In this document: positions 1,345 to 55,825 of the stretch, piece after piece
How positions within the stretch are numbered: the stretch's first letter is position 1
Layout of the letters: every line of letters starts with the position of its first letter
DNA from: an uncultured Candidatus Saccharibacteria bacterium
Lineage (GTDB): Bacteria > Patescibacteriota > Dojkabacteria > J137
NCBI GenBank assembly: GCA_964607415.1
Contig: CAZSKK010000001.1
Coordinates: 333,469-397,468, forward strand
Direction of reading: 5' to 3'
Length of the DNA stretch: 64,000 bases
The notes under the pieces: generated by a model
Databases searched by the model: none
What the model saw: only the letters and a program-made list of their open reading frames with translations
What the model was told of the DNA's origin: nothing
Program-made: the position numbers and the translations under genes

Positions 1345-2736
1345 TTAGAATTTCTTCTCAAACTTCTTCCTACTCTTTTTTACTCTTTTGTTTTTAGTTT
1401 CAGAAACATTGTTTATTTTACTTTCTATATTTTTACCTACTTTATTTTCAAATTTAAGTCCCAATTTTTCTTGAACTTCTGTGAATTTTAACAAAGCGGC
1501 ATCAAACTTAAACTGAGTTGCTAGTAAACCTAAAATTATCAAAAACACTCCAATTAAAAGTTTATTATCACCGCCTTCAGAAAACAAAGCTGTAGCTGGT
1601 AGTGTACAACCGTTATTTGTGCAGTTTGCGTTATTCAAACACTGCGTCAAAACACATATATTTCTGGATGTGTCACATACATTTCCAACAGGACATGCAC
1701 CATTACTACCGCAAGCACTTCCACAAACGGGATCTACTGCACAGTCTGAATCATTCGGAATGCTAGGATTTCTACAAACTCCGCTGATACATTGCAAACC
1801 ACTTGCACAATTTCCCTGCCCTGTTCCAGTACAAGCTTCATTACAAACTGGGATTCCAGGATCTGGAGTACAATCTGCATCATTTGGTACTGCAGGGTTT
1901 CTACAAACATTATTTATACATTGAAGACCACTTGCACAGTTTCCTTGGCCTGTTCCTGTACATGCTTGATTACATTGAGCAGTAACAACAGGATTGCAAA
2001 CTGGCAATCCACAAGTAATTTGCTCGCCAGAAACTGCATCAACTTTAACTCCACAAAAGCTTCCTGGATTAGACACGCTAATATTACTTCCTTGCATTAT
2101 ATCAATCTGACCACACCTTCCATCTAATGTTGCACTACAACTTCCGTTTTCTGCAAATATTTGAACACCCACATCATCTCCTTGACATCTGTTATCGGTT
2201 CCACAGCCATTTGGGCACAGAAAAATCAAACAACCTCCAGCAGCTCCAGTACCGTTTGGACATTGAAGAGAACCCCCTGTACCAGAACATGCTGAACAAT
2301 CTCCTCCACAGTCTAATCCAGTTTCTCCACAATCTTGAGAACCATTAGAGCAGTGTGCGGTACCAGTACATGAAGACGCTGCATTACCCCCGCAAGCTAC
2401 AATAGCATCGGCGACAACGTTGGGATTGGATGAGTCACCATTATAACATCTATATTGGCCTTCATTTACTGTTCCTGAAGGACAAGGATTACATCCTAAT
2501 GGACCACCAGGTCCATCACATGCGTTAGGCCCACATGCAGTATTGCAACTTGCACCTAGACTTAATGTCGTGCCTGGATAAGGACATTGAATTTGAGCGC
2601 TTGTATCATCTGGCGCTTGATCTTGCTGATTAAGCCTTATAGCAATATAGACAGAAATTCCTGCAAGAACCAATGTCAAAATAATCAGAACAACAATTGT
2701 AATTTTTCTAGATCTTGGCATAAGATAAGAATACAT
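1345..2736 (-). CDS. Membrane-anchored Cys/Gly-rich tandem-repeat surface protein with a C-terminal LPATA + hydrophobic + Lys-rich tail (sortase-substrate-like)
   Basis: 463 aa. The N-terminal TM/signal anchor is ITIVVLIILTLVLAGISVYIAI. About 15% of residues are Cys. There are two ~40-aa repeats, C-N-x-ACTGTGQGNCASGLQCI-x-x-VCRNP-x-x-PND-x-DC. The C-terminus reads CTLPATALFSEGGDNK-LLIGVFLIILGLLATQFKF followed by a K-rich tail. Confidence 0.6.
   Translation of the reverse strand: MYSYLMPRSRKITIVVLIILTLVLAGISVYIAIRLNQQDQAPDDTSAQIQCPYPGTTLSLGASCNTACGPNACDGPGGPLGCNPCPSGTVNEGQYRCYNGDSSNPNVVADAIVACGGNAASSCTGTAHCSNGSQDCGETGLDCGGDCSACSGTGGSLQCPNGTGAAGGCLIFLCPNGCGTDNRCQGDDVGVQIFAENGSCSATLDGRCGQIDIMQGSNISVSNPGSFCGVKVDAVSGEQITCGLPVCNPVVTAQCNQACTGTGQGNCASGLQCINNVCRNPAVPNDADCTPDPGIPVCNEACTGTGQGNCASGLQCISGVCRNPSIPNDSDCAVDPVCGSACGSNGACPVGNVCDTSRNICVLTQCLNNANCTNNGCTLPATALFSEGGDNKLLIGVFLIILGLLATQFKFDAALLKFTEVQEKLGLKFENKVGKNIESKINNVSETKNKRVKKSRKKFEKKF
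1758..2000. repeat. Tandem ~120-bp coding repeat, two copies about 85% identical, inside the Cys-rich protein gene
   Basis: The DNA shows a direct repeat: ccacttgcaca(a/g)tttcc(c/t)tg(c/g)cctgttcc(a/t)gtaca(a/t)gct... These encode the duplicated CN(Q/E)ACTGTGQGNCASGLQCI module. Confidence 0.6.
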
Positions 2737-2924
2737 AATTCAGAGAAAGAGGTAAAGAGCTATGAAACAAATTTACCTAATTATTCTAAATACAAATAAA
2801 CTCGAAATTCAAAACCCTAAACAAATTTGAAACCAGAGGATAGAGGCTAGATGCCAGAATTCGAAGCTCACAGCTCGAAACTCGCAAACACGTTAACTCC
2901 TTGTTTTTCGCTATATGCTATAAG

Positions 2925-4478
2925 CTATACGCTTTCTCCATCAAGGTATTCCTTGGCTAGTCTTAACAAATCAATCTTCTTATTATAAAGTGGTTCGTCT
3001 ATAACCTTTTCCAAAAGATAATTTAAAACTTTACCTAGAACTGGCCCTTGCTGCAATTCGAAGTTTTCCATTAAATCAGCACCTGTTATGTCTAAATCAG
3101 AAACTTTTAACGCCATGTCTTTTGCTCTTACCGACGCAATCCTTTCAGATAAAATATCGATATCTTTGGGGTCAAATTCGCTTTTGGGGTTTGAAGCTGC
3201 ATCTGCTATTCTTAGTTTCATCAAATCCTCAATTGCATCTTCGCCGCCGACATTTATTATCAATCTTCTTATAGCACCATCAGACCAACCGAACTGAGCC
3301 TTTGGCTCAGGATGACGAATGACGGATGACGAATTACGAGTAGTCTCACCCTGCTCGCTTTGCTCGCCACCCTCTCCATTAAGGAGAACTGAGGGTGAGG
3401 TGGTGGTACTCACGCCTTTGCGCCAGTCTGCAGATGGATAATAAAACATATGCCACCTTACAAGTCTTACTACTCTATCTATTTCAGCGTTAGAAAATTT
3501 AAGCCTTTTCATTATTTCTTTTGTCATTTCAGACCCCATAACATCATGGCCATAAAAGTGAATGCCCTTTTCATCGTCACTTTTGCATCTTGGCTTTGCA
3601 ATGTCGTGAAAAAGGGCTGCTAATTTTACTGAATCTTCAGCTTCATCTACAGCTTTAATTGAATGTGTAAAAACATCATCTGTATGGAATTGCGGCTGAA
3701 CTACTTCAACACCTTCCAAAAGTTCTGGAACAAACAGCTCAAGAATTCCTGAATCTTTTAATAAGTTTAATCCTTTGGAAGGCTTTGGAGATTTTAAAAG
3801 AAGTTTCATCAATTCATCTCTAAACCTTTCAACAGAAACCTGTTTTGTTATATGCAAGGTTTGTTTGATTGCTTCAAAAGTTTTGGTTTCGATTTCAAAA
3901 TCAAGTTGAGATGCAAGTCTACAAGCTCGAACTGATCTTAATCCATCTTCTGAAAATCTTTCGATTGGATCTCTTACTGCTTTAATTACTTTATTCTTTA
4001 AATCAAAAATTCCATTATAAGGATCAATCAGAATTTGTTGTACTGAGACATCTGAATCATCAAAATGTTGCAAGTCCAATGCTATAGAATTGATTGTAAA
4101 ATCTCTTCTTGCGAGATCTTCGTTAATAGTTTTTGTAAATTCTACTTTTGTGGGCCATCTTCCCCCCATGTAATCAGCTTCAGATCTAAACGTTGTAACT
4201 TGTACGTCAAATTTTTCGCCATTTTCATCTTCACCGATAACTGTTATAGTTCCAAACTTTGCTCCAGTTGGAATTGATTTAGGGAAAATCTTAGAAATTT
4301 CATCAGGGTTTGCATCTGTTGCGATATCATAATCTCCTGGTAGCTTTCCAAGCAATATATCTCTAATACTTCCGCCCACCAAATAAGCCTTAAAATTATA
4401 TCTTTGCAGTTCTTCGGCAATGTTTATTACATAGCTTGGAATCAGTTTTTGAAATTGTGGAATAGTTAAGTCGATCAT
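2925..4478 (-). CDS. cca: tRNA nucleotidyltransferase (CCA-adding enzyme / poly(A) polymerase family) with a C-terminal HD domain; contains an in-frame low-complexity insertion
   Basis: Pol-beta head motifs GGSIRDILLGKLPGDYDIAT and RRDFTINSIA are present, as is an HD domain (LAALFHDIAKP, YGHDVMGSE). The segment WRKGVSTTTSPSVLLNGEGGEQSEQGETTRNSSSVIRHPEPKAQ is encoded by a GC-rich repeat. Confidence 0.75.
   Translation of the reverse strand: MIDLTIPQFQKLIPSYVINIAEELQRYNFKAYLVGGSIRDILLGKLPGDYDIATDANPDEISKIFPKSIPTGAKFGTITVIGEDENGEKFDVQVTTFRSEADYMGGRWPTKVEFTKTINEDLARRDFTINSIALDLQHFDDSDVSVQQILIDPYNGIFDLKNKVIKAVRDPIERFSEDGLRSVRACRLASQLDFEIETKTFEAIKQTLHITKQVSVERFRDELMKLLLKSPKPSKGLNLLKDSGILELFVPELLEGVEVVQPQFHTDDVFTHSIKAVDEAEDSVKLAALFHDIAKPRCKSDDEKGIHFYGHDVMGSEMTKEIMKRLKFSNAEIDRVVRLVRWHMFYYPSADWRKGVSTTTSPSVLLNGEGGEQSEQGETTRNSSSVIRHPEPKAQFGWSDGAIRRLIINVGGEDAIEDLMKLRIADAASNPKSEFDPKDIDILSERIASVRAKDMALKVSDLDITGADLMENFELQQGPVLGKVLNYLLEKVIDEPLYNKKIDLLRLAKEYLDGESV
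3301..3420. repeat. GC-rich mosaic repeat element inserted in-frame in cca
   Basis: ggctcaggatgacgaatgacggatgacg...gtctcaccctgctcgctttgctcgccaccctctccattaaggagaactgagggtgaggtgg. It contains the inverted pair CTCACCCT/AGGGTGAG and modules (ccaccctctcc, gagcaaagcgag, gctcaggatgac) shared with elements at 5447, 7509, 16409, 22607 and 51588. Confidence 0.55.
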
Positions 4479-5091: not shown

Positions 5092-5352
5092 AACGCGATT
5101 ATATCATAGAATAGTTATAGTGTTTACGTGTTAACGAGTTAGAGAGCTAACTGATTAGATTATTAAAACTCAAAACAAGAATCTCCTAACTTTGATATAA
5201 TTCAGAATGACATCAGGGGTCAGAGACCTGAAGTTAGTGGCAAGATATCATAAGTAAGAATTTAAAGTTAATTCGTTTTGGTATGCGATTTCTGGATTCT
5301 AAATGTTTAGAATTTCCAATTTAGTATTTCGAATTTATCATTAATTTTTTCT

Positions 5353-6681
5353 ATGTTCATTTGTAGCAACTGTCAAAAAGAATTTTCTAAATGGAGTGGT
5401 CAATGTCCAAACTGTGGACAGTGGAATACACTAAATGAAGTTGATCCTTCGACTACGCTCAGGATGACAAAAACAAAATCGTCCAAAGCTTCCCGAAGCT
5501 CACGGCTCGAAGCTCGTAGCTCTCAGCAGCCAGTTAGACTTATTGATTTAGATAAAAAAGACGAAAAAGTAAGCTACAAACAAATAGAGCTCAAGACTGG
5601 TATCAAGGAATTTGATAATACAATTGGTGGAAGAATAATTTCTGGTCAAGTAATCTTGTTTGCTGGAAGCCCTGGCGTTGGTAAAAGCACTTTATCGTTA
5701 CAGATTACAGAAAGTTTTTCAAATCAAGGTTTAAAGATTCTATACATTGCAGGCGAAGAATCTCCAAGCCAAATAAAACACAGATCTGATCGATTAAAAC
5801 AAAAGCAAACTAATGTACTGTTTTACCCTGAGACAAACATAATCTCCATTCAAAACTATATTGCATCTCATTCAAAAGATATTGATTTAATTGTTGTGGA
5901 TTCAATTCAAACACTTTATTCACCGGATTTACCAAGTACTAGTGGATCCATTTCTCAAATTAGCGAATGCGCCGACAAGATTATAAGCTTAGCAAAAGGT
6001 TTTAGTATTCCTGCATTTATTATTGGTCATATTACAAAATCTGGTGAAATTGCTGGACCAAAAATTTTAGAACACATGGTTGACACAGTTTTATATTTTG
6101 AAGGTGATAAGCGTAGTGAATTAAGAATTCTTAAAGTAGAAAAAAATAGATACGGACCAACTGACGAAGCTGGGATTTTTAAAATGGCTGAAGGAGGCTT
6201 ATCAGAAGTTAAAGATACAAAAGAGCTTTTTGATCCAAGTAAAGAAGATGCTCCTGGATCTGTCTACTGTATGAGTTTAGAAGGTAACAGGCCAATAGTT
6301 GTGGAAGTTCAAGCACTTGCCACAAAAACATATTTTACAAACCCAAGAAGAACTTCTTCAGGTTTTGATTTAAATAGACTTTACATTCTCCTTGCAATTT
6401 TAGATAAAAAACTAAAACTAAAAACTTACGAATATGATGTTTATGTAAATATTACAGGAGGGATCAAAATTGTTGATCCTGGATTGGATTTAGCAGTCAT
6501 TAAAGCAATAGTTTCTTCAATTAAAAACGTAGTTGTCCCAAAAACTGAAGTATATTTTGGTGAAGTAGGTTTAACAGGTGAAGTTAGAAAAGTGATGTTT
6601 GAAGAAAAGCGAACAAAAGAATCTGAGAGAATGGGTTTTAAAAAGATAACTAATTCGAAAAATTTGAAAAGAATTAGTTAG
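5353..6681 (+). CDS. radA: DNA repair protein RadA/Sms
   Basis: N-terminal zinc finger CSNCQ...CPNCGQW, a RecA-like ATPase (GSPGVGKSTLSLQ) and a Lon-like C-terminal domain. An in-frame low-complexity insert (DPSTTLRMTKTKSSKASRSSRLEARSSQQP) is encoded by a GC-rich repeat. Confidence 0.85.
   Translation: MFICSNCQKEFSKWSGQCPNCGQWNTLNEVDPSTTLRMTKTKSSKASRSSRLEARSSQQPVRLIDLDKKDEKVSYKQIELKTGIKEFDNTIGGRIISGQVILFAGSPGVGKSTLSLQITESFSNQGLKILYIAGEESPSQIKHRSDRLKQKQTNVLFYPETNIISIQNYIASHSKDIDLIVVDSIQTLYSPDLPSTSGSISQISECADKIISLAKGFSIPAFIIGHITKSGEIAGPKILEHMVDTVLYFEGDKRSELRILKVEKNRYGPTDEAGIFKMAEGGLSEVKDTKELFDPSKEDAPGSVYCMSLEGNRPIVVEVQALATKTYFTNPRRTSSGFDLNRLYILLAILDKKLKLKTYEYDVYVNITGGIKIVDPGLDLAVIKAIVSSIKNVVVPKTEVYFGEVGLTGEVRKVMFEEKRTKESERMGFKKITNSKNLKRIS
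5447..5535. repeat. GC-rich mosaic repeat element inserted in-frame in radA
   Basis: cgactacgctcaggatgacaaaaac...cccgaagctcacggctcgaagctcgtagctctcagcagcc. Its modules are shared with 2857..2894 (cgaagctcacagctcgaaactcg), 36399..36445 (agctcgaaactcgtagct) and 3301..3420 (gctcaggatgac). Confidence 0.5.
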
Positions 6682-6797
6682 AAGCAGGAATCCTGGAGAC
6701 AAATGATACTTTCTTACACTTTTACTTCTGGATAACTATCTTCAAATTTGGATCGTGCTTCGAGTTTAGAATTTTAAATCAAAACACAACTATTTAA

Positions 6798-7508: not shown

Positions 7509-7563
7509 AATTCCGGACTTCACCTCTCCTTCGACAAGCTCAGGATCGTTGAATCCGGAATAA
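7509..7563. repeat. GC-rich palindromic intergenic element
   Basis: aattccggacttcacctctccttcgacaagctcaggatcgttgaatccggaata. An 8-bp inverted repeat (attccgga/tccggaat) flanks a core whose motif ccttcgacaRgctcagg recurs at 53171..53188. Confidence 0.45.
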
Positions 7564-15889: not shown

Positions 15890-16432
15890 ATGTTCGAAAT
15901 TAAAGAAGCAAATAGTGGTGATTTTGAACGTTTAAAACTTCTTATACTTGAGGCACTAAAAGAAGATCCCATCGCCTTTACTGTAACATTCGATGAGTAT
16001 AACCAAGGTAGTAATTCCTGGTGGCATTCTTTTTTAGATCCATACCTTTTACAAGATCATTCTAAATTATATATTGCAAAAAATAAAGATACAATTACTG
16101 GTATGATTGGAGTTCTTTTTTCAAGAAGAAGTAAACAAGAACATATTGCAACAATTGTTTGGTTTTATGTATCAAAAGAGTTCAGAGGAAATAAAGTTGG
16201 AAATGCATTATTTGAAAAATTACTAAATGATATAAGCGATATTAAGCGCATCAAAAAGATAACACTTAATGTAACAGCTACCCAGAAAGAGGCGCAAAAA
16301 ATTTATACAAAATATGGTTTTACTGTAGTTGGTGTTCTTAAAAATGACCTTCGCGAAAATGATACGTATCATGATATCGTTGTTATGGAAAAATATATAC
16401 GAAACCCTCACCCTAATGAGCAAAGCGAGTGA
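15890..16432 (+). CDS. GNAT-family N-acetyltransferase; the last ~8 codons are encoded by a GC-rich repeat
   Basis: FRGNKVGNALFEKLL and YTKYGFTVVG acetyl-CoA-binding motifs. Confidence 0.65.
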   Translation: MFEIKEANSGDFERLKLLILEALKEDPIAFTVTFDEYNQGSNSWWHSFLDPYLLQDHSKLYIAKNKDTITGMIGVLFSRRSKQEHIATIVWFYVSKEFRGNKVGNALFEKLLNDISDIKRIKKITLNVTATQKEAQKIYTKYGFTVVGVLKNDLRENDTYHDIVVMEKYIRNPHPNEQSE

Positions 16433-16475
16433 AGGGAGAGGGTGGCGAACGAACGTGAGCCGGGTGAGGGTGTTA
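16409..16475. repeat. GC-rich mosaic repeat bridging the GNAT stop and the ogg start
   Basis: cctcaccctaatgagcaaagcgagtgaagggagagggtggcgaacgaacgtgagccgggtgagggtg, with CCTCACCC...GGGTGAGG ends. Its modules match the reverse complement of the 3301..3420 element. Confidence 0.55.
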
Positions 16476-17344
16476 GGCCAAACAACTTAGCTCCTATGAA
16501 CAAAATATACTTACCAAACTACAATCTAAACACTACTTTGCTTGGTGGTCAATCATTTTCCTGGGAAGAAATTGATAAGTATTTTTACGGTTTTACACAA
16601 GATATGGTCATAAAATTAAAGCGTGAGAAAGACTTTTTATATTGGCAAACGTATCCTCAAAAAGATAATTTTGATTATTTAGCGACATATCTGCAAACTA
16701 ATTACGACTTTGAAACAAAAATAAAGCTGATTAATAAAGATAAACATATAAACTTAGCAATTGAGCAAAATAGAGGCTTAAGACTTTTAAAACAAGATTT
16801 TGAATTGACCACACTGTTTTTTATTTTATCTGCATTTAAAAATATTAAGGGGATACGGCATAGCGTAAAACTTTTATCAAAGCAACTTGGAGAAAAAGTC
16901 TTAGTTGATAATAAGGAATTTTATTTATTTCCTAAAACAGATACTATTGCAAATACTTCAGAACAAGAGCTTAAGAAATCGTCTATTGGCTACAGAGCCA
17001 AGTATTTAAAATTAACAAGTGAAATTCTTTTGAAAGAAAATATTTCTAGAAGTATTATTAATATGGATGAAACAGAGGCTAGAAAATTGCTGAAATCATT
17101 TCCAGGAATTGGAGATAAAGTTGCAGATTGTGTACTGACATTTGCTTTGGGATTTAGCACAACAACACCTTTAGATATCTGGGCAAAAAGAGTCTTAACT
17201 AACTTGTATGGACTTGATCCCAAAATGACTTACTTAGAGATGCGAGAATGGTTAAATAACTATTTTGAGGGCAACAGTGCACTTGCGGGTCAGTATTTGT
17301 TTGAGTATATTAGAAAACAAGGGAGATCAGTGTTGAAAAATTAA
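16442..17344 (+). CDS. ogg: 8-oxoguanine DNA glycosylase / AP lyase (OGG, HhH-GPD). The true start is probably the internal Met at 16496 (MNKIYLPNY), because the first 18 codons lie inside the GC-rich repeat
   Basis: OGG N-terminal domain (LGGQSFSWEE) and HhH-GPD (FPGIGDKVADCVLTFALG...TTPLDIWAKRV). Confidence 0.65.
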   Translation: MANEREPGEGVRPNNLAPMNKIYLPNYNLNTTLLGGQSFSWEEIDKYFYGFTQDMVIKLKREKDFLYWQTYPQKDNFDYLATYLQTNYDFETKIKLINKDKHINLAIEQNRGLRLLKQDFELTTLFFILSAFKNIKGIRHSVKLLSKQLGEKVLVDNKEFYLFPKTDTIANTSEQELKKSSIGYRAKYLKLTSEILLKENISRSIINMDETEARKLLKSFPGIGDKVADCVLTFALGFSTTTPLDIWAKRVLTNLYGLDPKMTYLEMREWLNNYFEGNSALAGQYLFEYIRKQGRSVLKN

Positions 17345-22000: not shown

Positions 22001-22606
22001 AGTGAATCTCAATTAATTGAATGGGAAAAGGAATTTATGGGTATTTTTATTTCAACTCATCCACTTGAAAACTATAAATGGATAACGCTTTTGAATGGAT
22101 TTAAAACTATATCTGAGATAGAGGCATTACATTCGGGTGATAATGTAAAATTTATGGGCATCATAAGTGGAATTAAAATTACGGCAACTAAAGCAGCAGG
22201 AGAAAAAATGGCAATTCTAACAATTGAGGACATGTCGGGAAAACATGAAGCAGTTTTGTTTCCTAAAAAATATTCAGAAATACTTTCAAAAAATTTATTA
22301 GTGGAAACGAAGCCAATTATTTTTGCAGGTGTAATTAATGAACGAAATGATAGAAGATCAATCGTAATAAATGAAATGGCGTTTGCAGAAATTGTGGATA
22401 AGCCAAAAACTTTAATACTAGATATTAGGGGTGTTGAAGACCAAAAAAAGCTTTCTAATATTAAACAATGTTTTTCTGACGAAGGTGACGTACAAGTGAA
22501 CATAATCTACGGAACGCAATCTGAGCCCAAAAGCATTACTAGAAAAAGCCATTTGACCGATGAACATTTTGAAATTTTGAGGGAGTTTATAAAGCGTACT
22601 TGGTAG
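19019..22606 (+). CDS. dnaE: DNA polymerase III alpha subunit
   Basis: 1195 aa. PHP domain HLHVHTEYSLLDG, polymerase core, and OB fold near the C-terminus. There is an acidic low-complexity insert, TSQEDDSSEESIDDSS. Confidence 0.9.
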   Translation: MSFTHLHVHTEYSLLDGVSKTPKLFEKVKELGMDSVAMTDHGVLYGAAEFWKLSKDFGINPIIGCEIYVAPLERTLRQPVNGIKYYHLLLLAKSLEGYQNLVKIVSIGQLEGMYYKPRVDKETLAKYSKGIICTSACMAGPLSRHILRGEFDQAEDWLRFLKGTYGEDFYLELQRHGYDGKDDLNINEYLVKNTSQEDDSSEESIDDSSQQKFANLKLREFAEKYKLPVVATTDAHYLNKEDKEVQTVLFAIKDGKLISDDTCRKGYEGTYIMSPEEMKLKFSDIPEAVDNTMVIADKIEHFGLKFERVQPRFWNIPKGSTAKSELKKQAYIGAVKKYTEYLNLKDKGDDVSVFENAIDKFSQNMFDDASKILTQELIDRLEYELMVIDKKGYNDYFLVVGDLMQFGRRNGILVGARGSAAGSVIAYVLDITNAEPIKWELYFERFLNLERPSPPDIDMDIQDDRRDEIIQYARDKYGEECVAAICTFGKLKTKAAIRDVSRVLGIDLKTADKLSKMVTVLFGKPFPISKMMEVDKEFAEIINSDENLQKMSSIVKKIEDLARHVSTHAAGYLITPEPITNYMALQRDAKDPEKIMTQMDGNFVDKLDFMKFDFLGLRTLTIIRNALEYIEQRHNKKIDITRVPENDPDTFALFSKGDTVGVFQFESPPMQQFLKDLQPETLEDICFLAAAYRPGPMKYIPDYILCKHGKKEPEYLIPELEPLLNKTYGFPIYQEQLLKICMELANFTLADGDVIRNALKKKQLDILKAKEPDFKKNFMDKFGYSQDIADKLWKQLEPFSDYGFNKAHSASYAVVAYWCAYLKAHYPIEFITALIHSDLENLERVTVDIKEAKRMGFKVSPPDINYSEVYFRPENEDTIRFGLGAIKNVGFKVCDEIVSERNKNGLFKSLADFTQRMGTKNANKRVLEALIKSGAMDEFGDRNALLQVIPEAIEIAAGKEKSKSLGQTDLFGSSDSSGDSISISILNLPKVEPVSESQLIEWEKEFMGIFISTHPLENYKWITLLNGFKTISEIEALHSGDNVKFMGIISGIKITATKAAGEKMAILTIEDMSGKHEAVLFPKKYSEILSKNLLVETKPIIFAGVINERNDRRSIVINEMAFAEIVDKPKTLILDIRGVEDQKKLSNIKQCFSDEGDVQVNIIYGTQSEPKSITRKSHLTDEHFEILREFIKRTW

Positions 22607-22691
22607 AGCCTCACCCGGCTTCACTTTGTTCAGCCACCCTCTCCAGTTTGGAGAGGGTAGTTTGAGCTTGCTCAAACTGGTGAGGCTACGG
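22607..22691. terminator. GC-rich palindromic element between convergent dnaE and relA-like genes; candidate bidirectional terminator
   Basis: gcctcacccggcttcactttgttcagccaccctctccagtttggagagggtagtttgagcttgctcaaactggtgaggc. It has nested inverted repeats (ccctctcca/tggagaggg, gtttgagc/gctcaaac, cctcacc/ggtgagg). Confidence 0.5.
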
Positions 22692-24167
22692 CTACTCTTC
22701 TCCCATCGCCCTTAAAGTCCTCCTAATCCTTGACTTTGTTTCTGCCATTTTACACTTTGCAAGCCAACCTCGATTTGTGTTTTTATGCTTTGTTGTAATT
22801 ACTTCGCACACATCTCCTGTTTGTAAAACATGATCCAATGTTACAATTTTTTTATTAATATACGCGCCATTACATCTGTCTCCAATTTGCGTATGAACTG
22901 CATAAGCAAAATCTAATGGAGTAGATCCCTTTTCCAAAATTACAACTTTTCCCTTGGGTGTAAAAACAAATACGCTTTCAGAAAATGCTTTAATTTTATA
23001 GGATTTAGTTGCTTCATCGGAGTTATTCTTCCAATCAACAAGTTCTTTGGTCCAAGTAAATGATTCTTTTTTAGAATTCATTTGGAGTTTGTATGCAATA
23101 TGGCTTGCGGGTCCAAATTCATTATATTCATGCATTTCAGCAGTTCTAATTTGAATTTCTGCAACAAAGCCATCAATATCTACTACTGTGTGAATAGATT
23201 TATATCCACTTGCTTTTGGCTTAATTATGTAATCGTCAAATTCTTCAGGGAAGTAGTCCCATTTTCCATGAATCAAACCTAAAACCAAGTAACACTCAGC
23301 CTCTGTATTTAAAATTACTCGAATTCCTAAAAGGTCTTTCAGTTTCTTAATGTGTGTTTCATTTAGAGTCTCGCCTTCATTCATATATTTCTTTTTTATT
23401 TTATTGTAGGTGCTACTATAATTTTTTGTTCTATAAGAAATGCTTACAGGCTTAACATTGTACTTTGATAATAGGTTCAAAATCTCATCCTCAACTTTTT
23501 TAAATATTGATTGGCTTTCCAAGTAAATTTTATCGGTATAAGATTTTATAAAATTATACTCTGTAGGATTTAAGATCTTTAATGCAGTGTTTTCAAATAT
23601 CGATTGAAAATGCCCCAATCCGAGATATTCACAAAGAGGCGCATACACAAGTTTTAATTTATATGCCTGATTCTTTTGAGTTTCGATTGGTAAAATATCA
23701 AGCGAAAAAGAATTATATAGTTTATTTGCAAGTCTGATTATTAAAATTCGAATATCTTCACTTGATGCAATCATAAGTTTTCTAAAGTTATCTGGATCTT
23801 CATTATGAAGTTCAAAACTTTCTGAATGCTCCTTAATCTGACTTAAACCATCAACAATAAATGCAACTTCTGTTCCAAACTTCTTATCTATTTCTTCAAT
23901 TGTTGCATGTTTTAAATCAACAATTTTGTGAAGCAGGCTTGCAATTACAGAAGTTGTGTCTAAATTAAGCTTTACAATATAGCTTGCAACAGTTAGCAAA
24001 TGTGTATCCATTGATTTGCCTGAAAGTCTTTTATCGTTCTTATGAAGTTCTGACGCATAATCAAACGCTTCTTTAATTTTTGAAACGTCGTATTTTATTA
24101 TTGAAGAATTTATTAGTTCTTCAAGTTCAGCAAAAGTTGTAATTTCGTTAAAGGTTAAGGTTTTCAT
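22692..24167 (-). CDS. relA: RelA/SpoT-family (p)ppGpp synthetase with a degenerate HD hydrolase domain and a TGS domain
   Basis: HD-like N-terminal region, but the site reads LLHKIV rather than LLHDV. Synthetase motifs DLLGIRVI and YKSIHTVVD...EIQIRTAEMHEYNEFGPASHIAYK are present. TGS domain: VFVFTPKGKVVILEKGSTPLDFAY. Confidence 0.8.
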   Translation of the reverse strand: MKTLTFNEITTFAELEELINSSIIKYDVSKIKEAFDYASELHKNDKRLSGKSMDTHLLTVASYIVKLNLDTTSVIASLLHKIVDLKHATIEEIDKKFGTEVAFIVDGLSQIKEHSESFELHNEDPDNFRKLMIASSEDIRILIIRLANKLYNSFSLDILPIETQKNQAYKLKLVYAPLCEYLGLGHFQSIFENTALKILNPTEYNFIKSYTDKIYLESQSIFKKVEDEILNLLSKYNVKPVSISYRTKNYSSTYNKIKKKYMNEGETLNETHIKKLKDLLGIRVILNTEAECYLVLGLIHGKWDYFPEEFDDYIIKPKASGYKSIHTVVDIDGFVAEIQIRTAEMHEYNEFGPASHIAYKLQMNSKKESFTWTKELVDWKNNSDEATKSYKIKAFSESVFVFTPKGKVVILEKGSTPLDFAYAVHTQIGDRCNGAYINKKIVTLDHVLQTGDVCEVITTKHKNTNRGWLAKCKMAETKSRIRRTLRAMGEE

Positions 24168-36398: not shown

Positions 36399-36445
36399 CT
36401 GCTACTAGCTCGAAACTCGTAGCTTATAGCCCCCAGGAGATTTTA
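36399..36445. repeat. GC-rich repeat fragment between the mutS start and the CaCA stop
   Basis: ctgctactagctcgaaactcgtagcttatagcccccagg. It shares agctcgaaactcg with 2857..2894 and 5500..5525. Confidence 0.4.
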
Positions 36446-37417: not shown

Positions 37418-37624
37418 ATATAGAGATTAGTGATTAGAGCCAAAGACTAGAGACAAGAGATTAGGTTTTGGATTCAAAAATTACAAAAGTTACAATTAAA
37501 AGAATTTATTTTTCCAGATGCATTACTTTAACGATAATCTTTGAAATTTTTCTCTAATTGTAAATTGATAATTTAATTTATATTATTTGCCTATTTTGGT
37601 GTCTGTTTTTGGCTCTCTATATAC
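37418..37624. repeat. Intergenic segment bounded by ~18-bp inverted repeats (TATATAGAGAGCCAAAAA-like)
   Basis: Left end: tatatagaga[ttagtgatta]gagccaaag. Right end: tttttggctctctatata. The left copy carries a 10-nt internal duplication. Confidence 0.35.
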
Positions 37625-45417: not shown

Positions 45418-45476
45418 GTTTGAGCTATCGGATGTCTGCTTTCAGCTATCTGAGAGCTGATGGCTGATAGCTGCTT
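45418..45476. repeat. Palindromic intergenic repeat (family R2), copy b, between the permease stop and the ATPase start
   Basis: gagctatcggatgtctgctttcagctatctgagagctgatggctgatagctgc. It shares an identical 12-mer and 16-mer with 4481..4563. Confidence 0.5.
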
Positions 45477-49565: not shown

Positions 49566-49757
49566 ATAAACTTAATGTTAACATCTAAAATTTCCGAATT
49601 TTAGCACCCTGTATTATATGTAGCAAGAAAATCTTAAATACTGATTTAATATTAAAATTGTATACATTGACTTGAAAACTCATTGAGCTGTAAGATGTTT
49701 AGTAGCGTTAGACGTTAGAAGTTTGACGTAGGACGAAGAACAAGCATTAGCTTGCTG

Positions 49758-51587: not shown

Positions 51588-51665
51588 CCTCACCCAATTC
51601 CGACTAATCGGAATTTCCCTCTCCATCTGGAGAGGGCGGCGAAGCCGGGTGAGACTATTTAGTAT
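51588..51665. terminator. GC-rich palindromic element between convergent genes (49908 gene and asnS); bidirectional terminator candidate
   Basis: gcctcacccaattccgactaatcggaatttccctctccatctggagagggcggcgaagccgggtgag. It has nested inverted repeats (ctcaccc/gggtgag, aattccga/tcggaatt, ccctctcca/tggagaggg). Confidence 0.5.
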
Positions 51666-52958
51666 TTATGGTCTTGTTAAAACTGTCGTTCTTGGGAACG
51701 CAATAGTCTCTCTAATATGGTGAACTCCACTTACCCACCTAACCATTCTTTCTAGTCCTAAACCAAAGCCACTGTGAACCACAGACCCATACTTTCTAAT
51801 GTTTAAGTACCACTCATAATCTGATACTGGATAGTTTCTCGCTTTCAGTTCCGCAAGCAGTTTGTCATAATCTTCTTCTCTTTGGCTCCCACCAATAATT
51901 TCTCGAGCTTCTTCTGGAGCAATTAAGTCCGCATTTCTTGCTCTAACCATTCCTTTATCATCTGTATATTTTTTCATGTAAAATGCTTTAACAGCAAATG
52001 GATAATCTTCAATAAATACTGGAACTCCAAAGTGATTTCCTATTTCGATTTCCTCCTCTGTGGTCATGTCGTCGTTATAATCAACCTTAAATCCTTTTTC
52101 TTCCATTAGCTTTTTAGCATCATAATGCTTCATTCTAACAAAAGGAGTGTTTACTGTTTTTTCCAGTACAGTTGTATCTCTTTCCAAAATTTCTAATTCA
52201 ACTTTACAGTTTTCAATACAATCTTTAAGAATCCTTTTTACCATTGCTTCTTGAACATCTTCATTCATTGATTGATCATGAAATGCCATTTCAGCATCCA
52301 TCATCCAAAATTCCGATAAATGATTTCTGGTCTTACTTTTTTCTGCTCTAAAAACGGGGCCAAAATCGTAAACTTTTCCAAAACTCATAATCGCAGCCTC
52401 ACTATAAAGCTGACCTGATTGAGTTAAATACATTTGATCTTCATAGTACTTTAGTGAAAATAGTTGAGTTGTATCCTCACAACTTGTTGGTTGCAAAATT
52501 GGAGTATCAAATCTAATAAAACCTTGCTCGTGATAAAAGTTTGTAATAGATCTAAAAACCTGATCTCTGATTCTTAAAACAGCCCAAGGAGTTTTTGATC
52601 TTAAATACAAATCCCTGTTTTCAAATAAAAATTCTGGCCCATGTTCTTTTTTACCAATTGGGAAATCTTCTGATTTTCCAATAAGTTTAACTTCTGAAAC
52701 TTGAATTTCATATTCTTCTTTTTTAGGATGTTTAGAGATTGTGCCATTAATTTCAACTGATGATTCTAAACCTAGTTCTTCAGCATACTTCCAAGTCTCT
52801 TCTGAAACTTTATCTTTTTCTACAACCGCTTGAATAAATCCTGACCCATCACGTAACTGCAAGAATGCTATTTTCCCAGAGGATCTTTTATTGTACATCC
52901 AGCCTTTAAAGATGATTGATCTATCTACGAACTCTTTTGCTTTTGAAATTGTGAACAT
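51666..52958 (-). CDS. asnS: Asparaginyl-tRNA synthetase
   Basis: 430 aa, class IIb. Motif 2 is FRAEKSKTRNHLSEFWMMDAEMAF (EFWM is AsnRS-like). Motif 3 is GGSQREEDYDKL...YGSVVHSGFGLGLERMV...AFPRT (GSVxHSGFG and the FPRT end are AsnRS-like). Confidence 0.75.
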   Translation of the reverse strand: MFTISKAKEFVDRSIIFKGWMYNKRSSGKIAFLQLRDGSGFIQAVVEKDKVSEETWKYAEELGLESSVEINGTISKHPKKEEYEIQVSEVKLIGKSEDFPIGKKEHGPEFLFENRDLYLRSKTPWAVLRIRDQVFRSITNFYHEQGFIRFDTPILQPTSCEDTTQLFSLKYYEDQMYLTQSGQLYSEAAIMSFGKVYDFGPVFRAEKSKTRNHLSEFWMMDAEMAFHDQSMNEDVQEAMVKRILKDCIENCKVELEILERDTTVLEKTVNTPFVRMKHYDAKKLMEEKGFKVDYNDDMTTEEEIEIGNHFGVPVFIEDYPFAVKAFYMKKYTDDKGMVRARNADLIAPEEAREIIGGSQREEDYDKLLAELKARNYPVSDYEWYLNIRKYGSVVHSGFGLGLERMVRWVSGVHHIRETIAFPRTTVLTRP

Positions 52959-53207
52959 ATATTTTAAGATATAAGTAATAAGTTATGAGTAACTAGTTTT
53001 ATTTTTAGCTAATAGCTTATAGCTAATAGTTAAACCATTTACTTCCCCTGAGAATGCATATTATGCATTCGAATGTAGCTAACTTAGCTCCACTCAACAG
53101 CACAATGTGCTGTTTCGGGATGAGGTATAAGATAAATAAGCTGTTAAAACTTTCTGCTCAGCTAGGATTCCCTTCGACAGGCTCAGGGTAAACTCCAAAG
53201 TAATAAT

Positions 53208-53290
53208 CTGGCATGGTAGGACTCGAACCCCAAACAGTATATTATACTGTTTGGCAAAACATAAGTTCTATATTAATTTGAACTTATGTA
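53208..53290 (-). other. tRNA 3'-end-like fragment (GGGGTTCGAGTCCTACCATGCCAG) preceded by two perfect 10-11 bp hairpins; a second tRNA-Asn 3'-end-like fragment lies at 53140..53180
   Basis: The minus strand reads ACATAAGTTC-aaattaatata-GAACTTATGT TTTG CCAAACAGTAT-aata-ATACTGTTTGG GGTTCGAGTCCTACCATGCCAG, which resembles the tRNA-Asn T-arm/acceptor (CTAGGTTCGAATCCTAGCTGACCAG). At 53148..53162 the plus strand reads gctcagctaggattc, compared with ggtcagctaggattc in the tRNA itself. No complete cloverleaf can be drawn. Confidence 0.3.
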
Positions 53291-53298
53291 AACAGAAA

Positions 53299-53370
53299 CT
53301 GGTCAGCTAGGATTCGAACCTAGAGTCTTCCCGTTAACAGCGGGATGCAATACCATTATGCTACTGACCA
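53299..53370 (-). tRNA. tRNA-Asn (anticodon GUU)
   Basis: Reverse complement: TGGTCAG-TA-GCAT-AATGGTAT-TGC-AT-CCCG-CUGUUAA-CGGGA-AGACT-CTAGG-TTCGAAT-CCTAG-CTGACCA-G. The acceptor is a perfect 7 bp. The anticodon loop is C-U-GUU-A-A. The T-loop is GGTTCGAATCC, the discriminator is G, and CCA is not encoded. Confidence 0.85.
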
Positions 53371-55713: not shown

Positions 55714-55825
55714 TTGTTAATTAGTCTCAGGTTAATTAGTAAAATACGAATTAACTTTTTTACTAGTTAACCAATTAACCTATGCAATATAAACTCAAAA
55801 CCCTTAACCCGTTAACTCTTAAACT
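55714..55825. promoter_or_regulatory. Conserved AT-rich operator-like motif, copy 2
   Basis: tttgttaattagtctcaggttaattagtaaaatacgaattaacttttttactagttaaccaattaacc...cccgttaactc, upstream of the gene at 55832. Confidence 0.45.

Follow-up and report, generated by a model that had tools for sequence, protein, structure and literature searches.

Two unrelated repeat-like modules form a GC-rich in-frame block in the variable linker of a Dojkabacteria RadA

In the radA/sms gene studied here, a GC-rich block encodes part of the linker that connects the zinc finger of RadA to its ATPase domain, which raises the question of what this DNA is and how it came to be translated within a housekeeping gene. 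The block was analyzed in the context of a 64-kb window, that is, the whole stretch of 64,000 nucleotides under study, and the coordinates of all relevant features are collected in Table 1. A sequence-only reading of the same window had interpreted the block as a ~30-aa insertion of a dispersed repeat family, tolerated inside an essential gene.

Table 1. Features of the radA region and of related loci in the 64-kb window
Feature	Position	Strand	Description
radA/sms gene	5353..6681	+	442 aa, ORF intact
RadA C4 zinc finger	aa 2-29		PF18073, E=1e-7
RadA linker	aa 30-81		between zinc finger and RecA-like ATPase
RadA RecA-like ATPase, Walker A GSPGVGKS	aa 105-112		invariant columns; matches PF06745 and PF13481
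RadA KNRYG motif (KNRFG-type)	aa 264-268		invariant columns
RadA Lon-like C-terminal domain, aligned part	aa 299-441		aligns to 5H45
GC-rich block	5447..5535	+	encodes linker residues 32-61, PSTTLRMTKTKSSKASRSSRLEARSSQQPV; in frame, no stop codon
Module 1, hairpin	5443..5468	+	26 nt, GATCCT-TCGACTACGCTC-AGGATGAC; stem and conserved loop
Hairpin core, radA copy	5446-5463	+
Spacer between the modules	5469..5493	+	AAAAACAAAATCGTCCAAAGCTTCC; 36% GC
Module 2, degenerate heptamer array	5494..5529	+	GAAGCTC ACGGCTC GAAGCTC GTAGCTC TCAGCAG; (AGCTCNN)n, four to five units
Hairpin core, intergenic copy	7528..7544	+	CCTTCGACAAGCTCAGG; nested in a bigger inverted repeat, ATTCCGGA...TCCGGAAT
Hairpin core, intergenic copy	53171..53187	+	CCTTCGACAGGCTCAGG; near tRNA-Asn (53299-53370, minus) and a tRNA 3'-end-like fragment (53210-53232)
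Heptamer array, intergenic	2862..2884	+	GAAGCTC ACAGCTC GAAACTC G; downstream, 41 nt past the CCA-enzyme stop codon
Heptamer array, intergenic	36408..36436	+	GCTCGAA ACTCGTA GCTTATA GCCCCCA; between an antiporter-like gene and mutS
CCA-adding-enzyme gene	2925-4478	-	neighbour of radA
Heptamer array in the CCA-enzyme gene	3305..3339	+	(GRATGAC)n headed by GCTCAGGATGAC; TRF period 7, 4.0 copies

The RadA linker and its atypical codons

The encoded protein combines the zinc finger, the RecA-like ATPase with its KNRFG motif and the Lon-like domain of the RadA family, and is collinear with a solved RadA: residues 8-425 of the S. pneumoniae protein (5LKM) align to residues 2-437 (E=7.6e-103). The cysteines C4, C7, C18 and C21 are invariant across an alignment of 44 orthologues. 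A search of genome contigs with a RadA alignment supplied background sequence only; among the matches listed were the RadA loci of distant bacteria and of two Saccharibacteria, at 39-45% identity. Because E. coli, B. subtilis and S. pneumoniae can do without radA/sms, to call it an essential gene is an overstatement.

The size of the supposed insertion depends on the normal length of the linker. The zinc finger had been expected to be closely followed by the RecA-like domain; in every RadA examined, the solved 5LKM included, 61-89 residues separate it from the Walker A motif. This spacing equals 80 residues here; among 73 Dojkabacteria-like orthologues it runs from 61 to 89 with 72 as the median, which reduces the ~30-aa insertion to a net excess of ~8 residues (~24 nt) in a naturally variable linker, with a ceiling of 19 aa (57 nt) relative to the shortest orthologue. 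The linker is Ser/Lys/Arg-rich in all RadA orthologues, while its length and sequence vary. Residues 33-57 are modelled by AlphaFold2 as disordered: they lack secondary structure and their pLDDT stays below 50.

At the nucleotide level the block does stand out from its gene, as the sequence-only reading had claimed. Its GC content is 0.52 vs 0.32 in the remainder of radA and its GC3 is 0.47 vs 0.19; the rare codons in it are CGA, CGG, CGT, CTC, TCG and ACG. A codon-usage measure conditioned on amino acids gives the block a mean ln RSCU of -0.29 as compared with +0.25, within the lowest 0.08% of windows. Codon usage this atypical was found in 13 of 17,209 thirty-codon windows from 49 ORFs, and all 13 lie in the radA block or in a loop of the neighbouring CCA-enzyme gene. 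The block is also not conserved across RadA homologues, again in line with that reading: five of six distant orthologues (L091, L092, L093, L261 and L262; ~65% identity) lack it and have AT-rich linkers with normal codons that encode similar peptides.

Two modules and their relatives

The GC-rich block consists of two unrelated modules, a hairpin motif and a heptamer array, and is not one element. A general repeat finder applied to the whole window did not place these modules among its top lists; they were revealed by low-word-size BLAST and pattern scans. In the low-word-size BLAST the whole block has no second copy in the 64-kb window, and only its sub-modules match, each separately. No other site in the window significantly matches the spacer between them, which differs from that of the sister species at 7 of 21 nt. 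Folding of the block is no better than that of shuffled sequences (RNA z-score -1.46; DNA z-scores -0.41 and -0.16), and by eye the block shows neither terminal inverted repeats nor a convincing target-site duplication.

In the hairpin module, ATCCT (5444-5448) pairs with AGGAT (5461-5465) to give a 5-bp stem that encloses a loop at 5449-5460. The module also holds the 12-mer GCTCAGGATGAC and an in-frame ATG at 5464. This 12-mer has exactly two occurrences in the window, at 3305 and 5457, and the match between these two sites, taken by itself, scores a BLAST E-value of ~1. The hairpin core CCTTCGAC-N2-3-GCTCAGG is present in three copies in the 64-kb window vs 0.00 expected, namely in radA and at two intergenic loci, and the orientation of the radA copy relative to transcription is opposite to that of both intergenic copies. 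With the family defined here as CCT-TCGAC-N2-3-GCTC-AGG, the radA module has the exact core and the closing stem of a multi-copy motif.

Copies of the hairpin core are by no means confined to this window. They were found in L090, L035 and L057, and the taxa represented include another Dojkabacteria genus (beside tRNA-Asn), Saccharibacteria and Dehalococcoidia; at least 120 IMG/VR contigs carry the core, whose middle and 3' flank are non-random there. Of 87 copies, 48 have AA or AG as the middle dinucleotide. Conservation extends to the 3' flank, and the first flanking pair of the stem covaries in 137 copies, a value that none of 500 shuffles reached. One copy (L249) equals the radA copy across 29 consecutive bases (ATCCTTCGACTACGCTCAGGATGACAAAA). 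In the surroundings of 120 hairpin loci we found no recurrent neighbour gene of the transposase or RAYT-like kind; the largest cluster (12 of 120) comprises phage structural proteins. The combination of hairpin and heptamer array was not encountered elsewhere, as none of 87 hairpin copies has such an array within 150 nt. The motif presumably bears a partial resemblance to the terminal repeats of the Tn3 family (GACGCTCAG..GAACG). Many metagenome genomes have small spurious ORFs with peptides such as FDKLR.., LSLSKG.. and SLRMT, and our impression is that these represent the translated hairpin motif.

The second module contains four GCTC at 7-nt spacing and is weak as a tandem repeat: TRF reports period 7 and 4.1 copies at 5494-5522, with 68% matches and a score of 30 that equals the threshold. 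Its relatives in the window are intergenic. The array downstream of the CCA-enzyme gene is identical to it at 21 of 23 positions (2862-2884 vs 5494-5516), and the array next to mutS at 23 of 29 (36408-36436 vs 5505-5533; E=0.015). The common core GCTCGAARCTCG occurs three times in the window vs 0.08 expected, with one copy in the latter array, and arrays of (GCTCNNN)x3 with at most one mismatch occur twice vs 0.0 in 100 shuffles. Altogether the window has 16 period-7/14 arrays compared with a shuffle mean of 4.0, and 11 of the 16 fall into intergenic DNA, which makes up 12.6% of the window (P=3e-7). The intergenic arrays show no significant structure when folded as RNA or DNA. In the sister species, the 2862-2884 array is found at the orthologous place, diverged by substitutions.

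Outside this genome, the 22-mer GAAGCTCACRGCTCGAARCTCG has 45 exact matches in unrelated metagenome contigs, all inside such heptamer arrays, and AGCTCNN units form inverted array pairs in many soil-metagenome contigs, an arrangement of which we found no description in the literature. No Rfam family covers either module, neither at the gathering threshold (window and 20 metagenome loci) nor at E<=5 (window), and literature searches by sequence and peptide strings returned no paper describing either of them. An Acido-Lenti-1 match in L121 was set aside as an unrelated motif.

The view that the block is built of sequence types otherwise found in intergenic DNA was borne out. Two of the stretches proposed as intergenic repeats, 2857..2894 and 36399..36445, do hold intergenic arrays, at 2862-2884 and 36408-36436; the third, 3301..3420, lies inside the CCA-enzyme gene. 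The sole match of the radA block within that gene is GCTCAGGATGAC at the head of the 3305-3339 array, which is itself a 24-nt, 8-codon expansion that corresponds to a gap in the sister species (alignment to L139). A palindromic GC-rich family with the arms CCTCACCC ... CCCTCTCC-loop-GGAGAGGG ... GGGTGAGG occurs at 3340-3412, where it sits in frame in the CCA-enzyme gene, and at 16403-16499, 22594-22725 and 51599-51667. None of these arms is present in 5440-5545, and the assignment of the radA block to the same repeat family as the CCA-gene repeat gives way to the two modules described above.

Age of the block and competing explanations

The sister species, whose RadA is 91% identical, has both modules at the same length, and the block is neither recent nor private to one species. 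No orthologue with an "empty site" turned up at RadA identities from 66% to 91%; the block may therefore go back to an insertion or to an in-situ origin, and its boundaries are provisional.

The two modules have diverged at different rates. Over the 32 nt of 5443-5474 the two species have the same sequence, although they differ at 15-18% of radA positions; none of the 11 codons of the hairpin module has a synonymous change, as compared with ~36% of codons elsewhere. This run is the second-longest identical one in radA; in this single pairwise comparison its a-priori probability is ~0.01, and such a run is expected about once per gene. Within these bounds, the lack of synonymous change hints that the hairpin module may be under a nucleotide-level constraint, unlike a pure passenger. 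In the array part, 38% of residues differ between the species vs 5% in the catalytic domains, and two strains of the sister species are separated by three clustered changes inside one array unit. Only substitutions and no indels distinguish the arrays of the window, L001 and L264. No array length difference was seen in four contigs with the exact protein of this species, a look-up that by its nature cannot reveal length variants. The likeness of the radA array to the intergenic array of its own species is not clearly above that between species, and concerted evolution is not claimed.

Gene callers let two sister-strain genes (P0243 and P0244) begin with the ATG that lies in the hairpin. Neither gene breakage nor the end of a contig explains these short calls, the full ORF being intact in L264.

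We consider it rather probable that the block is intergenic-type passenger DNA, which lies in frame in the variable, disordered linker of RadA and is tolerated there. One module is a 26-nt hairpin repeat whose stem has 5 bp and whose conserved loop, TCGAC-NNN-GCTC, has 11-12 nt; its family has several copies in the genome and is present across phyla. The other is an AGCTCNN array of a simple-repeat type for which the intergenic DNA of this genome is strongly enriched. Both modules may have entered the linker, or grown there, in an ancestor common to the species and its sister species, overwriting the ancestral linker sequence and adding ~8 codons net with the frame preserved. Replication slippage or template switching are candidate routes for the array, and the hairpin could have arrived by copying or insertion, perhaps with later exchange with intergenic copies. 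The fresh in-frame 24-nt heptamer expansion in the CCA-enzyme gene shows that such a process operates in coding loops. We infer that the block is neutral, and no change of RadA function is expected, because its Ser/Arg/Lys/Thr-rich unstructured peptide resembles the linkers of other orthologues. The retention of GC-rich rare codons in an AT-biased genome since the split of the two species counts against this reading, as do the hint of constraint on the hairpin module, the weak tandem character of the array and the missing "empty site" orthologue.

A single ~89-nt mobile palindromic element of the Rickettsia palindromic element (RPE) or MITE type, transposed in frame into radA, is in essence what the sequence-only reading proposed. 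It would likewise account for an in-frame codon-usage outlier with sub-sequences repeated in intergenic DNA, and the true palindromic element in frame in the CCA-enzyme gene offers a precedent next door. However, the net excess of ~8 aa, or 19 aa at most, is too small a fit for an addition of this length, the two modules are nowhere else found together, and the poor fold, the missing terminal repeats and duplication, and the lack of the palindromic-family arms all argue against it, which makes this explanation improbable. Still less credence, very little in fact, is due to the idea that the locus is ordinary, with its GC content dictated by a Ser/Arg/Ala-rich peptide and its common words arising from chance low-complexity matches. 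The Ser/Lys/Arg-rich linkers of all orthologues and the insignificant match of the 12-mer alone agree with this idea, but the codon usage of the block remains the most extreme in the window after conditioning on amino acids, orthologues use AT-rich codons for similar peptides, and the counts of the three motifs (3 vs 0.00, 3 vs 0.08 and 2 vs 0.0) are not reproduced by shuffling or expectation.

Selection could alternatively maintain the hairpin in radA as a functional nucleotide-level element, either as an RNA or single-stranded DNA hairpin bound by a factor specific for the conserved loop or as a cue for translation to begin internally at ATG 5464, which would yield RadA without the zinc finger. 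The identical 5443-5474 run, the loop conserved across phyla with its covarying stem, and the two short gene calls in sister strains are consistent with such a role. We regard it as unlikely, given how often a run of this kind is expected, the reversed orientation relative to both intergenic copies, the lack of an Rfam match even at E<=5, the intact full-length ORF in the strain with the short gene call, and the sequence upstream of ATG 5464, which when read by eye has no Shine-Dalgarno at the proper distance. Background sections of PMC4679880 and PMC2651432 describe heptanucleotide repeats as known slippage substrates, a property that counts in favour of phase variation. The array might be imagined as a contingency locus, in which gain or loss of one 7-nt unit, not being a multiple of 3, shifts the frame and switches RadA off and on. 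Its units are imperfect (68% matches), though, and substitutions with no length difference were seen among the sister-species contigs read and between the two species, so that this scenario is highly implausible.

A bolder and quite tentative proposal goes beyond passenger DNA. The radA hairpin may be one member of a so far undescribed family of small structured repeats (loop TCGAC-A(A/G)-GCTC, covarying stem) that extends across phyla, with copies in candidate-phyla-radiation bacteria, in Chloroflexi, in soil bacteria and in phage contigs. This family would spread within and between genomes, settle in frame in disordered loops, and be held in radA by nucleotide-level selection. The AGCTCNN arrays, which form long inverted-array hairpins in many soil bacteria, might be a related product of this same process.

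Relation to known repeats and wider meaning

The radA block shares with RPEs and with intragenic MITEs such as ERIC and BOX (PMC10969869) the presence of an intergenic-type repeat in frame in a housekeeping gene, where it is translated and tolerated in a surface or unstructured region; it is in frame and absent from distant orthologues. RPEs are ~100-150 bp long and wholly palindromic, add 30-50 residues, and have full-length copies dispersed through the genome (PMC10969869). In contrast, the radA block adds ~8 residues net, is made of two juxtaposed modules with no significant fold, and has no full-length second copy in the 64-kb window or the sister-species loci.

Heptamers are the most abundant long-unit simple repeat according to reports cited in PMC4679880 and PMC4692102, and prokaryotic examples include the cyanobacterial STRR and the TAACTGA repeats of Beggiatoaceae (PMC4679880). 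The radA array resembles these in its short tandem 7-nt units (at least three of period 7), in the strongly intergenic location and above-composition frequency of its type, and in a unit type common to distant phyla. It differs from them in its unit, AGCTCNN, of which a 5-nt core is constant and 2-3 positions vary, and in that the radA copy is coding, degenerate and free of unit-number polymorphism in the strains compared. As in the repeats of Borg elements (PMC9879509), expansion within an ORF results in a low-complexity disordered segment that leaves the protein unbroken; however, Borg repeats are perfect and recent with units divisible by three (PMC9879509), whereas the radA array has a 7-nt unit, is degenerate with age and is present in two species.

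The hairpin is similar to REP/BIME-type extragenic palindromes in being small, GC-rich, mostly intergenic and present in several copies per genome. REP sequences are species- or genus-specific, whereas the radA-type hairpin keeps the loop TCGACARGCTC across phyla, with no RAYT-like neighbour among 120 copies. The consensus of Rfam family RF02901 (AaHKsRNA41, Aggregatibacter sRNA 41) contains the inverted pair CUGAGCUUGCCGAAG ... UUCGGCAAGCUCAG, which is nearly the hairpin core. This likeness is sub-threshold (25 bits vs a gathering score of 97, on a phage-contig copy, with none in the window at E<=5) and represents a lead and not membership.

Taken alone, the radA block illustrates on a small scale a theme already known, the survival of an intergenic repeat in frame where a loop of a housekeeping protein is unconstrained. 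With it, this theme reaches a reduced, AT-rich genome of the candidate phyla radiation, in which the flexible linker of RadA and the loop of the CCA enzyme are the places that tolerate such DNA. For annotation, a GC-rich patch of rare codons like this one should not be mistaken for a horizontally acquired segment, a frameshift or a new domain. A broader lead comes from the near-identity of both modules in very distant bacteria and phage contigs; if these amount to a real family, it raises the questions of how the family spreads and what its partner is.

A GC-rich block in the RadA linker

The RadA protein encoded in this AT-rich window (33.1% GC) has Pfam matches to a zinc ribbon (residues 2-29) and to a KaiC/DnaB/AAA_25-type ATPase, and its residues 2-437 align with the solved S. 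pneumoniae RadA 5LKM (E=7.6e-103). The closest named relatives are found in Candidatus Dojkabacteria genomes (60-66% identity), while P0001, the RadA of a sister species, is 91% identical. About 10 contigs, drawn from several sequencing runs, encode the identical protein, as does a 584,792-nt NCBI contig; radA and its block are thus stable traits of a real population rather than an assembly artefact. One NCBI entry, KAA0206820.1 (P0242), is an 82-residue fragment equal to RadA residues 183-263 except for an initial Met in place of Val182. It is labelled 'Candidatus Uhrbacteria bacterium', whereas every other named relative is from Dojkabacteria, and the taxonomic label of the source genome may be inconsistent.

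The sequence-only reading took the ATPase to follow the zinc finger closely in ordinary RadA proteins and the block for an insertion of ~30 residues. However, a sizeable linker of 61-89 residues is present in every RadA examined. The distance from the zinc-finger end to Walker A is 80 residues in the window protein, compared with a median of 72 (range 61-89) in 73 Dojkabacteria-like orthologues and 66 (range 61-76) in 45 RadA proteins of other bacteria, so that the linker is longer by about 8 residues and not by 30. At the position of the block the aligned orthologues have non-conserved, Lys/Ser/Gly/Arg-rich sequence, and an AlphaFold2 model built with 44 orthologues gives residues 33-57 a pLDDT below 50 without secondary structure (85-95 in the domains). 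Therefore, the block occupies a naturally variable, disordered linker, to which it adds about 8 residues. The GC-rich block is missing from five more distant orthologues (L091-L093, L261 and L262).

The claimed GC-richness was borne out, at 0.52 for the block and 0.32 for the remainder of radA; 60-base windows across 5450-5539 reach 0.52-0.58 in surroundings of about 0.3. Codon usage likewise sets the block apart as an outlier within its gene, with GC3 of 0.47 versus 0.19 and a mean ln RSCU of -0.29 across 30 block codons versus +0.25 elsewhere in radA. Arginine is encoded in this genome by AGA in 65% and by CGG in 1% of cases, and CTC makes up 3% of leucine codons; the block contains CGA, CGG, CGT, CTC (twice), TCG and ACG. 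An equally low score was found in 13 of the 17,209 thirty-codon windows from 49 ORFs, all 13 within the block or the loop of the CCA-adding-enzyme gene. Linkers of the five distant orthologues have GC of 0.28-0.37, GC3 of 0.08-0.30 and ordinary codons, even in cases of a similar peptide (for instance, FRMKGSKGSKSS from ttt aga atg aaa ggt...). GC-richness is not a general property of the RadA linker, and among the orthologues only the sister species has the block, at equal length.

Several other features of the locus were recorded. In another Dojkabacteria lineage (L263 5001-6341, protein P0026) the radA linker is independently GC-rich (GC 0.50, GC3 0.54), Gly/Ser/Ala/Arg-rich and among the longest of the orthologue set, which suggests that such expansions recur in the RadA linker. 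The sister species carries a 298-residue epimerase-family gene (PF01370; L001 1435-2331) between radA and the metallophosphatase gene, in place of the short spacer of the window. The locally high GC of a minus-strand gene, which contains an internal tandem duplication, is due to its amino-acid composition.

Coordinates of the features in the window
Feature	Position	Strand	Description
radA/Sms ORF	5353-6681	+	442 residues
GC-rich block	5447-5535		two modules with a 25-nt spacer between
Module 1	5443-5468		GATCCT-TCGACTACGCTC-AGGATGAC; 5-bp stem ATCCT/AGGAT, 12-nt loop
Module 2	5494-5529		GAAGCTC ACGGCTC GAAGCTC GTAGCTC TCAGCAG
Hairpin-core copies	5446, 7528, 53171		last two intergenic
tRNA 3'-end-like fragment	53210-53232	-	GGTTCGAGTCCTACCATGCCA
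Period-7 arrays (examples)	2910-2933, 5306-5337, 37421-37464, 45450-45473, 49706-49729, 52965-53033, 55799-55822
CCA-enzyme gene	2925-4478	-
CCA-enzyme loop	3272-3442		residues about 356-396
Palindromic family, intergenic	16403-16499, 22594-22725, 51599-51667		about 65-85 nt
Palindromic family, CCA-enzyme gene	3340-3412		about 65-85 nt
Cys/Gly/Asn-rich protein gene	1345-2736	-	463 residues; N-terminal membrane anchor
Tandem repeats in that gene	1730-1845, 1859-1974		129-nt duplication, 77% identity
radA-metallophosphatase spacer	6682-6797		116 nt; no epimerase-family gene

Genomic distribution of the two modules

Module 2 is a degenerate heptamer array that TRF reports with period 7 and 4.1 copies, only at threshold score. 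If up to one mismatch is allowed, the window has two three-unit GCTCNNN arrays (module 2 and 2866) and 100 shuffles have none; a more degenerate array of this unit type is found at 36408, and both intergenic arrays lie directly downstream of minus-strand genes. The words said to be common to the block and the repeats at 2857..2894 and 36399..36445 are real: 5494-5516 and 2862-2884 agree at 21 of 23 positions, 5505-5533 and 36408-36436 at 23 of 29, and the common core GCTCGAARCTCG has 3 copies (0.08 expected). More generally, the window holds 16 period-7/14 arrays (30 shuffles averaged 4.0 and never exceeded 10), and 11 of the 16 fall in the intergenic 12.6% of the sequence (P=3e-7); the radA and CCA-gene blocks are two of the five coding ones. 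The unit of the period-7 arrays varies between sites, which are often directly upstream of gene starts.

When the 22-mer at the core of this radA array was searched exactly, 45 metagenome contigs of 37-73% GC were returned. All matches are part of arrays built from this unit, often with an inverted array upstream so that the pair forms a long hairpin. In another Dojkabacteria genus an array of this kind lies just upstream of radA. Among the JGI metagenome contigs (L094-L138; for instance L113, L097, L099, L127 and L129, with long arrays in L119, L126 and L136), many from soil have an inverted (NNGAGCT)n array 5-20 nt upstream of the AGCTCNN array. These pairs fold into 60-80-nt hairpins of 5-bp GAGC/GCUC blocks with small internal loops (-42 to -62 kcal/mol), for which no Rfam match was obtained.

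The core of module 1, CCTTCGAC-N2-3-GCTCAGG, has three copies in the window versus 0.00 expected. Further copies were found on one Saccharibacteria and one Dehalococcoidia contig and, as ATCCTTCGACAAGCTCAGGATGAC, directly adjoining tRNA-Asn in another Dojkabacteria genus. IMG/VR contains the core on at least 120 contigs of 31-71% GC. These copies are not chance matches: 48 of 87 have AA or AG as the free middle, the 3' flank shows conservation (GCGAACGG, ACAGGC or RTGAC), and one copy (L249) equals the radA copy across 29 consecutive bases (ATCCTTCGACTACGCTCAGGATGACAAAA). In 137 distinct copies the first pair beyond CCT/AGG covaries (C-G 52, T-A 33, G-C 9); pairing reaches 74% versus 52% when shuffled (0 of 500 shuffles as high), and the next three pairs outward are weakly enriched. 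An AGCTCNN array within 150 nt of a hairpin copy was observed in 0 of 87 cases; modules 1 and 2 are therefore independent.

The form TTCGACA(A/G)GCTCAGG extends across phyla and phage contigs (L141-L260 from IMG/VR, L035, L057, L085, L090, L113, L127 and L128), at times as inverted pairs (L190, L206), and no gene family associated with it was found. In soil contigs the loop also takes the form TCGCTTYGCTC, on long stems. The core bears a weak resemblance to Rfam RF02901 AaHKsRNA41. A fragment between the hairpin copy at 53171 and tRNA-Asn resembles the tRNA-Asn T-arm of the other Dojkabacteria genus (L090 16842-16941), in which the hairpin directly adjoins the tRNA gene; the fragment may have been left by integration or rearrangement at tRNA-Asn. 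The radA gene calls of two sister-species strains (P0243 at L264 1561, and P0244) begin at an ATG inside the hairpin (AGGATGAC) and omit the zinc finger, with the full-length ORF intact upstream.

Divergence of the block and the CCA-enzyme loop

Between the window and its sister species, divergence in the radA catalytic domains is 15% for nucleotides and 5% for residues, compared with 26% and 38% in the array region; the latter residue divergence indicates that protein-level constraint is absent there. In the hairpin module, 2 of 33 nt differ and none of the 11 codons has a synonymous change, versus about 36% of codons elsewhere in radA; 5443-5474 is the second-longest identical run of the gene. 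This identity, seen in one comparison and with an a-priori probability near 0.01, may point to constraint or to recent copy correction. Two sister-species strains have radA genes 98.1% identical, with 3 of the 25 differences in a single heptamer unit (GAAACAC versus TAAGCTC), a clustering that templated change within the repeat would fit better than independent point mutations.

The repeat at 3301..3420, previously called intergenic and assigned to the same family as the radA block, lies inside the CCA-enzyme gene. The enclosing loop, between YYPSADWRK and GW[ST]D, is hypervariable in Dojkabacteria (about 9 to 41 residues; P0121-P0199), and in some of these enzymes a whole domain is inserted; P0127 and P0161 (678 and 700 residues) both match PF00300 (histidine phosphatase), and the alignment of P0127 shows a long insertion in the loop. 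In the window genome and the sister species (L139) the loop contains a palindromic element, CCTCACCC...CCCTCTCC-loop-GGAGAGGG...GGGTGAGG, translated in frame and also found at three intergenic sites, two of them between convergent genes. Its fuller, GC-rich form is CCTCACCC ... (G)CC(A)CCCTCTCC-loop-GGAGAGGG(TGGC) ... GGGTGAGG. None of these arms is present in the radA block, which is therefore outside this family. The loop-like word CTCGCTTTGCTC can be read inside the CCA-gene element without a flanking stem. The only link between the two blocks is the 12-mer GCTCAGGATGAC (3305 and 5457), which in the CCA gene starts a (GRATGAC)n heptamer array, a 24-nt, 8-codon expansion not in the sister species. 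Heptamer arrays do expand in frame within the coding loops of this lineage, as the comparison of the two species directly demonstrates.

Origin of the block

The best-known cases of intergenic repeats that survive in frame are Rickettsia palindromic elements and other intragenic MITEs (PMC10969869). The radA case works alike, but the block lacks their defining size, whole-element copies and palindromy. A single 89-nt element of this type is accordingly quite improbable: its length does not fit, the window has no further full-length copy, it does not fold as required, and its modules are independent of each other. A purely compositional origin is excluded by codon usage and by the counts of heptamer arrays and hairpin cores relative to expectation. 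No variant of differing length was observed, which leaves phase variation at this locus unsupported.

We consider it unlikely, though less so than these alternatives, that the hairpin is functional.

The best-supported account, which we regard as probable, is that intergenic-type repeat DNA, consisting of a hairpin-motif copy and a short array of heptamers, reached the unconstrained linker by copying or expanded inside it. The observation made from sequence is partly confirmed and its interpretation partly supported. Heptanucleotide-repeat excess and its intergenic concentration in prokaryotes (PMC4679880, PMC4692102) and the creation of disordered protein segments by repeats (PMC9879509) are already known. 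No Rfam family covers module 1 or module 2, and literature searches with their sequence and peptide strings found nothing; the cross-phylum recurrence of both modules may be the sole new part. The repeats would have arrived in the ancestor of the window and sister species and displaced codons of the ancestral linker, for a net gain of about 8; the block would be tolerated because it still encodes a disordered peptide that is basic and rich in Ser.
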